DNA of 5,944 nt from the IMG/VR virus record IMGVR_UViG_2585427756_000006. One strand, 5' to 3'. Each line of letters starts with the position of its first letter. The first letter of the stretch is position 1. Of the stretch, positions 1,470-4,845 are shown piece by piece. The notes beneath the pieces were generated by a model that searched no databases, was not told the DNA's origin, and worked only from the letters and a program-made list of their open reading frames with translations. The translations under genes were made by a program, and so were the position numbers. This stretch comes from a virus. Its lineage: Duplodnaviria > Heunggongvirae > Uroviricota > Caudoviricetes.

Positions 1470-1811
1470 ATGGATTATTCACAGTTAAGTGATTTTGAAA
1501 TTAACAGAATGGTAGGAGACATAATTTTTAAAGGCCTTTGGGCAAGTAAACCGGAAACATCAGGGAATAACACCAACAAATGGTATTACGGAAATGCTGA
1601 TACAACTTTTGAGCCATTAAATCATTTGCCTGACTACTGCAATGATCCGAGCGCTTCATGGCCGATTATTGAGAAATACAGGATTTCTATCTTAGACCAG
1701 TTAACTGAATGGTGTGTGGATGCAAAAGGCGTAAGCCCAATATTTGATACCAGACCTCTCCGCGCCGCCATGATTGTCTTTCTCCTGATGCAGGAGGCCA
1801 ATAATGCTTAG
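1470..1811 (+). CDS. Conserved phage protein of unknown function, NinX-like (DUF2591-type) by position and recollection
   Basis: 113 aa [24 protein letters not shown]...; SD GAGGA at 1458..1462 with 7 nt spacing to ATG 1470; sits directly after ninE as NinX does in P22-like nin regions. Family name is from memory and unverified. Confidence 0.6.
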
Positions 1812-1998
1812 CCCATCTCAATCCCTTCAATACCTGAAAGAAAGCATAGAGCGGGCTTCAATGTGCACAGAGTGGATTCTATCTAGGTTTAGCGCATACA
1901 GAAGATTGCCGGTAAAGGGCATGCCAAGCAAGTCGATGCTGCATATGCAAAAGAATGCGCGCTGGAAGGTATGGCGAGAACACAGGTTATGTGGCTAA
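1804..1998 (+). CDS. Small ORF with NinF-like N-terminus whose 3' part reads out of frame through ybcO-derived DNA (chimeric; possibly a degenerate pseudogene)
   Basis: 64 aa [24 protein letters not shown]...; near-ideal SD AGGAGG (1792..1797) 6 nt upstream of ATG 1804, embedded in the 3' end of the preceding gene. The first ~18 residues resemble lambda NinF as I recall it; the remainder lacks the Cys-rich NinF motif. Confidence 0.4.
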
Positions 1999-2021
1999 AA
2001 GAGGGGGTTATTAAGGCGTGA
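1932..2021 (+). pseudogene. ybcO: 3' remnant of ybcO-like (DUF1364 putative nuclease) gene; N-terminal coding part absent
   Basis: Frame-0 translation ...[29 protein letters not shown] matches the C-terminus of K-12 DLP12 YbcO from memory; an in-frame TAG at 1890..1892 and no start codon upstream of the homologous segment; stop TGA 2019..2021 overlaps rusA GTG. Confidence 0.5.
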
Positions 2022-2380
2022 ATACCTACAGCATCACATTACCCTGGCCTCCGAGCAATAATCGCTATTACCGCCATAATCGCGGGCGCACGCACGTCAG
2101 CGCAGAGGGGCAGGCATACCGCGATAACGTCGCCCGAATCATTAAAAACGCAATGCTGGATATCGGCCTGGCTATGCCTGTGAAAATCCGCATTGAGTGC
2201 CACATGCCGGATCGCCGTCGCCGTGACCTGGATAATCTGCAAAAAGCCGCTTTTGACGCACTCACTAAAGCAGGTTTCTGGCTGGATGATGCTCAGGTCG
2301 TTGATTACCGCGTTGTGAAGATGCCTGTTACCAAAGGTGGGAGGCTGGAACTGACCATCACCGAAATGGGGAATGAATGA
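2018..2380 (+). CDS. rusA: Holliday junction resolvase RusA
   Basis: 120 aa [38 protein letters not shown]... essentially as I recall E. coli RusA; GTG start overlapping upstream stop (GTGA); SD-like GAGGGGG at 2000..2006. Confidence 0.9.
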
Positions 2381-3174: not shown

Positions 3175-4257
3175 TTAGAACTGATAAACCAGACCTACAG
3201 CGACGATGTCGTCGGTATCAATACCAGCTGTTTTGGTAAACTTACTATCGTCAATTAAGTTGATTTTGTAATCAACAAAAGTAGACATGTTTTTATTAAA
3301 GTAGTAAGTAGCACCGACATCGACATACTTGACTAAGTCTCGGTCACCATGAACACCAAGGTCTTTACCTTTTGACTGAAGGTAAGCAACAGATGGGCGC
3401 AGACCGAAGTCAAACTGATATTGTGCTACTGCTTCAAAGTTTTGTGCTTTGTTTGCAATATGGTTATTACCAAAAACGGTCATATTCTGAGTTTCAGAAT
3501 ATGTGGTAGCCAGATAGATATTGTTCGCATCATATTTCAGGCCTGCAGCCCATACTTCCGCATTTTTGCCGGAGGCATTGAATTTGCTCTTACCATAGGC
3601 GACCTGACCGTCAGTGCGATCTGATTTAGCATAGGTTGCACCCACGCCGAATCCTTCATACTCATAAGTAGTGGAGAAACCGAAACCATCACCATTGGCT
3701 TCAGTTACGTCAGTGCGGTCATTTTTACCCTGATACTGAGCAGCAAAGTTCAGGCCATCGACCAGACCAAAGAAGTCGTTGTTACGATAAGTTGCAACAC
3801 CAGTAGTGCGACCAGTCATGAACACATCTGTTTGGGTCCAGGTATCACCACCGAATTCTGGCAGAACGTCAGTCCACGCACCGATGTCGTATGCTACACC
3901 GTAGTTACGGCCGTAATCGATGGAGCCGTAATCACCAAATTTCAGGCCTGCAAATGCAAGACGGGTTTTGTCTTTGGAAGAACCTTGAGATTCAGCACGG
4001 TTGCCTTTGAATTCATATTCCCACTGACCGAAACCAGTCAGTTGATCGTTGATTTGGGTTTCACCTTTGAAGCCAAGACGGGCATAAGTAGTATCACCAT
4101 CATCTGCATCATTAGAGGAGAAGTAGTGCTTGGCATTAACTTTCCCGTATAGATCCAGCTTGTTACTGTCTTTATTATAAATTTCAGCTGCCTGAGCAGA
4201 CATCGCCATCAGTACTGATGCAGCTACAGCAGAAATTGCCACTGTTAATTTTTTCAT
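3175..4257 (-). CDS. nmpC: Outer membrane general porin, NmpC/Lc (OmpC/OmpD family), apparently intact
   Basis: 360 aa; signal peptide [23 protein letters not shown] followed by AEIYNKD; beta-barrel porin features and C-terminal ...VGLVYQF; SD AAGGG upstream of ATG at 4257..4255. The ORF-track start at 4317 is an N-terminal over-extension. Confidence 0.9.
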
Positions 4258-4420
4258 TGTACGCCCTTTTTTTGAACTATTATTAAAAAATGATGTCACT
4301 GCGCGATAAATATTCATCTAATCAATGTGATTATTTCAAGATGTAAGTTTTAGTTTCTCATTTAATTTGTGAAGTAGATCTCTATTTTTATCTGAACCTT
4401 TTCTATCTAATCCTATTCAT
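4258..4420 (-). promoter_or_regulatory. Probable porin promoter / 5' UTR region (AT-rich)
   Basis: Minus-strand reading contains TTGAAA -35-like hexamer with plausible but weak -10 candidates 17-19 bp downstream. Exact elements not resolved by eye. Confidence 0.3.
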
Positions 4421-4683
4421 GGCTCTTGTCTGAACAAAAATAAATCTATTAGCTAATTTATATTAATGGCACTTATTTATAAGTGCTCTATAATTCTTTA
4501 GCTTAATTTAAACAAACTAAAAATAACATCGGAAATTATTAACTGATTATTTGTTGAAGTTTTCTTATGTATTTGTGGTGGTGTTTTGAACACTCGGTGG
4601 CATTCTCACAAATATCATTTAGTAGTTTACGTACGTAAAAAATTGGTTATGCTGTTAAGAGTGGTTACTTCGTCACACAGCTT

Positions 4684-4716
4684 AAACCCGCCGTCGAGCG
4701 GGTTTTTCCATTTTTT
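4684..4716 (+). terminator. Intrinsic terminator on the plus strand within the AT-rich spacer upstream of the holin gene
   Basis: Stem AAACCCGC / GCGGGTTT (4684..4691 / 4698..4705) with loop CGTCGA, followed by TTCCATTTTTT. A-run before and T-run after, so it may also work bidirectionally. Confidence 0.5.
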
Positions 4717-4845
4717 GAGTCTCGATATTAGCTGATAACCCAATACCTGAGTTATTCACTGACTCCGAATCTGTTACGTTTCTGCCTTTATTGCGATACG
4801 TAATATCCCCTTAATTTACACCCGCTTTGTCTGCGAGGTGGGGTT

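Follow-up and report, generated by a model that had tools for sequence, protein, structure and literature searches.

A probable three-part mosaic scar with an accidental chimeric reading frame upstream of rusA in lambda-like Escherichia coli prophages

The stretch of DNA analyzed here (IMG/VR record IMGVR_UViG_2585427756_000006; 5,944 nt, hereafter the window) comes from a lambda-like E. coli prophage, of which it covers the right-hand early region. It opens with an IS3-family element on the reverse strand (1–607, ending at about 607; orfA at 227–553), whose ALIL frameshift pseudoknot was located with Rfam at 156–272. The element cuts ninB, of which only an abutting C-terminal remnant (612–770) is left, so the prophage lacks everything to the left of that gene. 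In a related genome (L229), by contrast, an element of this family lies between O and a remnant of int. The remnant is followed by a Dam-type methyltransferase gene (770–1294), ninE (1291–1467) and, on the forward strand, ninX (1470–1811), which encodes a DUF2591 protein (PF10765, E = 7e-17) and shares 95% DNA identity with ninX of phage L. Further to the right, rusA (2018–2380, forward strand; PF05866, E = 7e-23) starts with GTG and precedes ylcG (2377–2517) and quuD (2603–2986). A porin gene on the reverse strand (3175–4260), named ompC or OmpD in related records, looks intact; it corresponds to nmpC of K-12, a gene that IS5 disrupts in that strain. Beyond it lie essD, rrrD and rzpD, with a long AT-rich non-coding stretch at about 4260–4845 between the porin gene and essD.

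Between ninX and rusA we located an ORF of 64 codons on the forward strand (ORF64, 1804–1998), running from an ATG at 1804 to a TAA at 1996–1998. As read from the sequence, it is present just as a preliminary description of this DNA had reported it, with an AGGAGG motif (1792–1797, forward strand) and a spacer of 6 nt (1798–1803). This Shine-Dalgarno sequence is that of ninF, now serving ORF64; phage L has AGGACG at the homologous position versus AGGAGG here. The start of ORF64 overlaps the 3′ end of ninX (stop codon at 1809–1811) by 8 nt, and in P22/L-type phages ninX overlaps ninF likewise.

The left part of ORF64, segment A (1804–1866, forward strand), consists of the first 21 codons of a P22/L-type ninF, up to the first cysteine of the zinc ribbon. 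The BLAST homology with the ninX-ninF region of Salmonella phage L (379/397, 95%) ends at 1866, and the match to the PHROG NinF family (phrog_672, E = 3.6e-4) is confined to residues 1–22. A NinF-like beginning of about 18 residues had been proposed earlier, and we find it over residues 1–21. ORF64 therefore has in common with NinF proteins of the lambda/P22 type (PF05810, PHROG 672) the slot after ninX, the Shine-Dalgarno sequence, a start overlapping ninX and residues 1–21, whereas unrelated sequence stands in place of the defining Cys-rich zinc ribbon (CxxC...CxxCC, residues 20–44). The domain occupies those same residues, 20–44, in NinF of phage L, scoring 52 bits; ORF64 diverges after residue 21. 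Searches of ORF64 against Pfam returned no match at E ≤ 1, the NinF domain (PF05810) included, and none was obtained against NCBIfam. Near the 5′ end of the ORF, at the equivalent of about 1819–1830, one IMG/VR locus (L064) has a 9-nt unit tandemly triplicated in frame (SLQ three times).

The right part, segment C (1932–2021, forward strand), is a 3′ remnant of ybcO, whose product in DLP12 and phage 82 is a DUF1364 protein (PF07102; PDB entry 3G27). The remnant retains the last 29 codons and the stop, equivalent to residues 68–96 of K-12 YbcO, together with the GTGA in which the ybcO stop overlaps the rusA GTG by 4 nt, as in the K-12 annotation. The N-terminal 67 residues, which include the Cys/His metal and active-site region of this nuclease, are absent. 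YbcO has been placed in the His-Me finger superfamily (PMC5714182). Homology with the ybcO-rusA region of K-12 DLP12 starts at 1932 and amounts to 164/169 positions (97%) over 1932–2100, so that the YbcO homology of 1932–2021 claimed in the preliminary description is plain at the DNA level. At the protein level the remnant reaches 17.7 bits against PF07102 (cut-off 29.9; profile positions 62–92 of 92), versus 144.8 bits for K-12 YbcO; it has neither a full-length domain above the gathering threshold nor an ORF with a start. The ybcO frame has no usable start and is closed upstream by two stops (1884–1886 and 1890–1892), which bears out the earlier statement that the ybcO C-terminus lies in another frame, lacks a start and has an in-frame stop.

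Over 1932–1998 the frame of ORF64 is +1 relative to ybcO. The out-of-frame reading of ybcO had thus been recognized correctly, although its extent, given as the last 20 or so codons of the ORF, needs correction: the remnant comprises 29 codons and the stop, and 22 of these codons are overlapped by ORF64, whose own stop lies 19 nt upstream of the rusA GTG. No special cause is needed for ORF64 being open through an alien frame, because a run of 22 stop-free codons has a chance of about 0.35; the ORF would owe its existence solely to the ybcO tail being free of stops, by chance, in the +1 frame. Several DLP12-type ybcO genes (clusters P0017–P0020) contain frameshifts or internal deletions and end in the same +1-frame tail as ORF64, which indicates that ybcO decays repeatedly in cryptic prophages.

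Between the two remnants lies segment B (1867–1931, forward strand), an orphan piece of 65 nt that belongs to neither gene. We rejected it as a diverged form of ninF or ybcO, having found no similarity at word size 7 and only unrelated translations. The region around it (window positions 1838–1938) matches, at 88% (89/101), unannotated DNA located after ninE in SH2026Stx1. In complete E. coli genomes segment B occurs in two contexts only, the window-type and the Stx1-type nin region. The window-type is represented by 568 genomes at an identity of at least 99% and by 17 more at 95–99%, while the Stx1-type copy, with an identity of 88–90%, occurs in about 250 genomes and shows the same ninF joint. 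Its ninF remnant of about 20 codons is of the lambda type (MIDQNRSYEQESVERA), versus the P22 type in the window. To the right of the piece, the Stx1-type region has unannotated AT-rich DNA and a hypothetical reverse-strand gene of 590 aa, followed by an HNH gene, by ninG, and by a phosphatase gene and Q; it has no ybcO. Within the accessory (moron) block of this type (L006, 2453–4728; L230, 785–4184), the HNH endonuclease gene encodes 188 aa. A scan of one genome per species recovered segment B in one E. coli contig only, and no other right-hand context was present in IMG/VR. Judged from these contexts, segment B represents the left border of an accessory (moron) region that Stx1-type phages still retain.

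The alignment of nin regions proposed earlier as a check on the breakpoint, made here with phage L, DLP12 and Stx1-type phages, gave two sharp boundaries, at 1866/1867 and at 1931/1932, where homology to the respective parent is lost abruptly, and ORF64 crosses both. The recombination scar that had been suggested is upheld in that it lies among the nin genes, immediately upstream of rusA, with a dead ybcO and an ORF that starts as NinF. What has to be given up is a single deletion fusing ninF to ybcO, since the 65 nt between the joints (1867–1931) match neither gene and are of a third origin. The joint at 1866/1867 is common to the window-type and Stx1-type classes and is therefore older than their split. 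From these homology boundaries we infer a history of two steps. In the first, an illegitimate joint would have cut ninF after codon 21, with accessory DNA replacing the body of the gene; in the second, a later deletion (1931/1932) would have removed the accessory DNA together with the first two thirds of ybcO. Mosaic "novel joints" and deletions in the nin region are well established for lambdoid phages (lambda nin5; ninR as a "chain of interlinked genes"). The locus resembles such joints in the abrupt step from about 95% identity to none, in the loss of dispensable nin genes and in the overlapping starts and stops; it differs from the usual ones in that the joints fall inside genes and not at gene borders, leaving a chimeric ORF and a pseudogene. 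On the whole, we consider it likely that 1804–2021 is a three-part mosaic scar and that ORF64 is an accidental chimera whose peptide has no selected function and which has, at most, an effect in cis.

An origin of the junctions in faulty assembly or sequencing has a negligible probability. One metagenome scaffold (L228) does contain a join across an N-run beside the locus; however, hundreds of closed genomes, as well as phages sequenced independently, contain the identical scar sequence, and the deletion junctions described below are seen both in complete genomes and in two assemblies made independently from the same samples. The artefact explanation is thus refuted. Concerning L228 itself, its "ybcO next to P" was discarded as a scaffold join across the N-run at about 1360–1370; there, a ybcO fragment is joined to O-P DNA, creating a spurious ORF of 95 aa and a false gene order. 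Another candidate, L185, was rejected as a further junction at 1932, as it turned out to carry an intact ybcO allele.

Of 5426 complete E. coli genomes, 568 carry exactly this arrangement, among them those of Nissle 1917, UTI89, CFT073 and ATCC 25922; it is also present in 27 phage records, which include the isolated phages PhiR11_1, mEp332 and ev207. Phages carrying the scar are viable, and consequently neither NinF nor YbcO is needed. The annotation of the locus varies between sources. In E. coli chromosomes PGAP reports 1932–2021 as a DUF1364 pseudogene ("incomplete; missing N-terminus"), a call which is correct for ybcO, and leaves ORF64 unannotated. RefSeq phage records name ORF64 "protein ninF" (e.g., NC_049949, L002, 2835–3029; clusters P0002–P0005), a label that is misleading, indeed wrong, because the NinF domain is absent. 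In GenBank phage records the ORF is either hypothetical or has no CDS. A literature search on ninF, ybcO and rusA found nothing relevant.

Apart from a scar, a new small ORF had been put forward as an alternative for this locus. In its strongest form, ORF64 would be a newborn functional small protein, a basic peptide of 64 aa produced when the prophage is induced and under selection for an activity of its own. The strong Shine-Dalgarno sequence and the coupling to ninX agree with this, as do the wide distribution of the arrangement and the RefSeq annotation as a protein. Moreover, each of the 96 loci sampled has ORF64 open, with an in-frame duplication of 6 codons in one allele, and the 568 complete genomes have it intact. 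This intactness carries little weight, however, being expected by chance at a divergence below 2%. Against a selected peptide, a word-indexed search of 5.8 billion proteins gave 20 ORF64 clusters and HMMER, run exhaustively on 1.84 billion representative proteins, gave 12 matches, and every match of either search was a copy of the E. coli locus, a frameshift variant, a deletion fusion or the Stx1-type sister. Neither search returned a full-length homologue from a diverged genome or a conserved family spanning the whole 64 aa, beyond near-identical E. coli copies. Nor does the ORF have a recognizable domain, and its C-terminal third is another gene read out of frame. Polymorphism among 95 loci from IMG/VR and metagenomes, where counts are small, comprises 12 nonsynonymous and 5 synonymous changes in the ORF64 frame, with no excess of synonymous change; the common polymorphisms are all nonsynonymous (E13G, C21S, W54G, E59K, H60R, and C63S), some of them radical (E13G, W54G, C63S). 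The ten differences from the Stx1-type copy over 1838–1931 are likewise few and are spread 4/3/3 across the three codon positions. The substitution pattern therefore looks neutral-like. In the Stx1-type lineage, the ATG of the ORF has been lost and a TAA at codon 4 interrupts it in 32 of 36 contigs, and variants with frameshifted or replaced C-termini persist at low frequency (clusters P0005–P0010). We regard a newborn functional protein as very improbable, and the product of ORF64 is, as far as these comparisons indicate, most likely junk without a selected function.

ORF64 is nevertheless probably translated, because the AGGAGG of ninF and the 8-nt overlap with ninX are retained, and initiation is predicted to take place at the inherited ninF start. 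Translation of ORF64 would bring ribosomes as close as 19 nt to the rusA GTG, which could allow reinitiation; it may in this way partly replace the GTGA coupling between ybcO and rusA that has been lost. A putative effect in cis on the translation of rusA would be, at most, the only plausible effect of ORF64. The predicted RNA fold of 1930–2090 around the rusA start is no better than that of shuffled sequences (z = 0.62); with no significant structure there, nothing indicates that the start has to be unmasked by translation from upstream. An RNA element in the region was also considered and dropped, Rfam reporting nothing besides the ALIL pseudoknot in the IS3-family element. Matches to promoters or terminators were absent from 1804–2021.

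The protein searches also revealed fusions of the ORF64 tail with 434-type Cro and with lambda P. Specifically, the DNA to the right of the step 1914/1915 (TA/AAGGGCATGCC) is joined at exactly that step to at least eight different left partners. These are 434-type cro at codon 61, lambda P at codons 33 and 47, O at about codon 65, exo, two points in an Ea22-like gene and one point in the PL operon. The step, within a TA/A at 1913–1915 to which no strand is assigned, falls on the V37/K38 codon boundary of ORF64 and is the right endpoint of at least eight different large prophage deletions. The prophages anchored there are integrated at attB-lambda (by ybhC) and at a tRNA-Arg gene by intD, several of them in closed genomes. 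Microhomologies of 2–4 nt (TA, GGTA, TAAA) are present at the junctions. Some loci are patchworks of fragments of 40–140 nt, one of them consisting of an int remnant, 40 nt, 137 nt of O and the tail, and a second one of cro codons 1–16, P codons 34–47 and the tail; these patchworks look like the result of serial template switching. Within 1804–1946 only one other endpoint was found, also at a TA (1890–1891).

A fixed end combined with a variable partner is the pattern of a transposon end, of IEE-type excision or of fork collapse at a fixed nick. We rejected a transposon end, as there is neither a matching inverted repeat nor an occupied allele: no insertion sequence was seen at 1914/1915 in about 700 loci, and a search for inverted or direct copies of the end (15- to 20-mers, up to 3 mismatches) in the window and in a 49-kb prophage yielded a single match, a copy with 3 mismatches in the porin gene (4128–4142) that is consistent with chance. 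CRISPR type I-E self-targeting, suggested by an AAG PAM at 1915–1917, was excluded by reasoning: every deletion derivative retains the PAM and the protospacer and so would not be a CRISPR escaper. Inspection against consensus sequences gave no match for Chi protection, Tus-Ter, the lambda att core or invertase sites. Deletions extending rightward and keeping the left side were not found among 81 IMG/VR loci.

These observations raise the question of whether the key feature of the locus is a cis-acting DNA site and not a coding sequence, with a one-sided determinant to the right of 1914 that seeds leftward deletions and for which a replication barrier, a site of nuclease action or nicking, or the border of a former insertion sequence would be candidates. 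The eight left partners meeting at exactly 1914/1915 at different integration sites, complete genomes included, would be explained by such a site, as would the single other endpoint across 1804–1946 and the patchworks with their suggestion of serial template switching. A precedent is offered by the IEE-dependent excision of IS3-family insertion sequences, which leaves deletions adjoining the element (PMC9943667). Deletions at insertion sequence borders (IEE; PMC9943667) and microhomology-mediated template switching share with 1914/1915 the fixed end with a partner varying over kilobases, the 2–4 nt microhomologies and the short templated patches, a likeness in pattern only. Unlike such borders, 1914/1915 shows no insertion sequence, and no barrier, nuclease or other candidate enzyme has been identified. 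Furthermore, no notable repeat or fold lies beside the endpoint, copies of the end in either orientation are missing from the window and a 49-kb prophage except for the chance-like one in the porin gene, and the homologous Stx1-type sequence has no anchored deletions in 36 contigs. That a cis-acting site is what chiefly matters at this locus we therefore consider unlikely, albeit less so than a functional ORF64 peptide. Taken more narrowly, 1914/1915 could be a sequence-determined, one-sided hot spot of breakage or recombination, with its determinant within 1913–1931, which triggers large leftward deletions and patchworks; we hold this as a tentative possibility, with the balance still tilted against it. 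A site of this kind does not compete with the reading of ORF64 as a scar.

The scar is ordinary lambdoid mosaicism in a dispensable region, with a pseudogene already flagged by PGAP, and is in itself of very little importance; the deletion endpoint alone merits more work. What the scar probably does record is a two-step history that connects the Stx1-type nin region with lambda-like prophages found in extraintestinal E. coli such as Nissle 1917, UTI89 and CFT073. If the hot spot proved true, a defined site acting in cis would strip lambdoid prophages of their immunity, replication and nin genes and drive their decay to cryptic remnants. Should 1914/1915 be a defined break site, it would make the disabling and domestication of prophages accessible to experiment.
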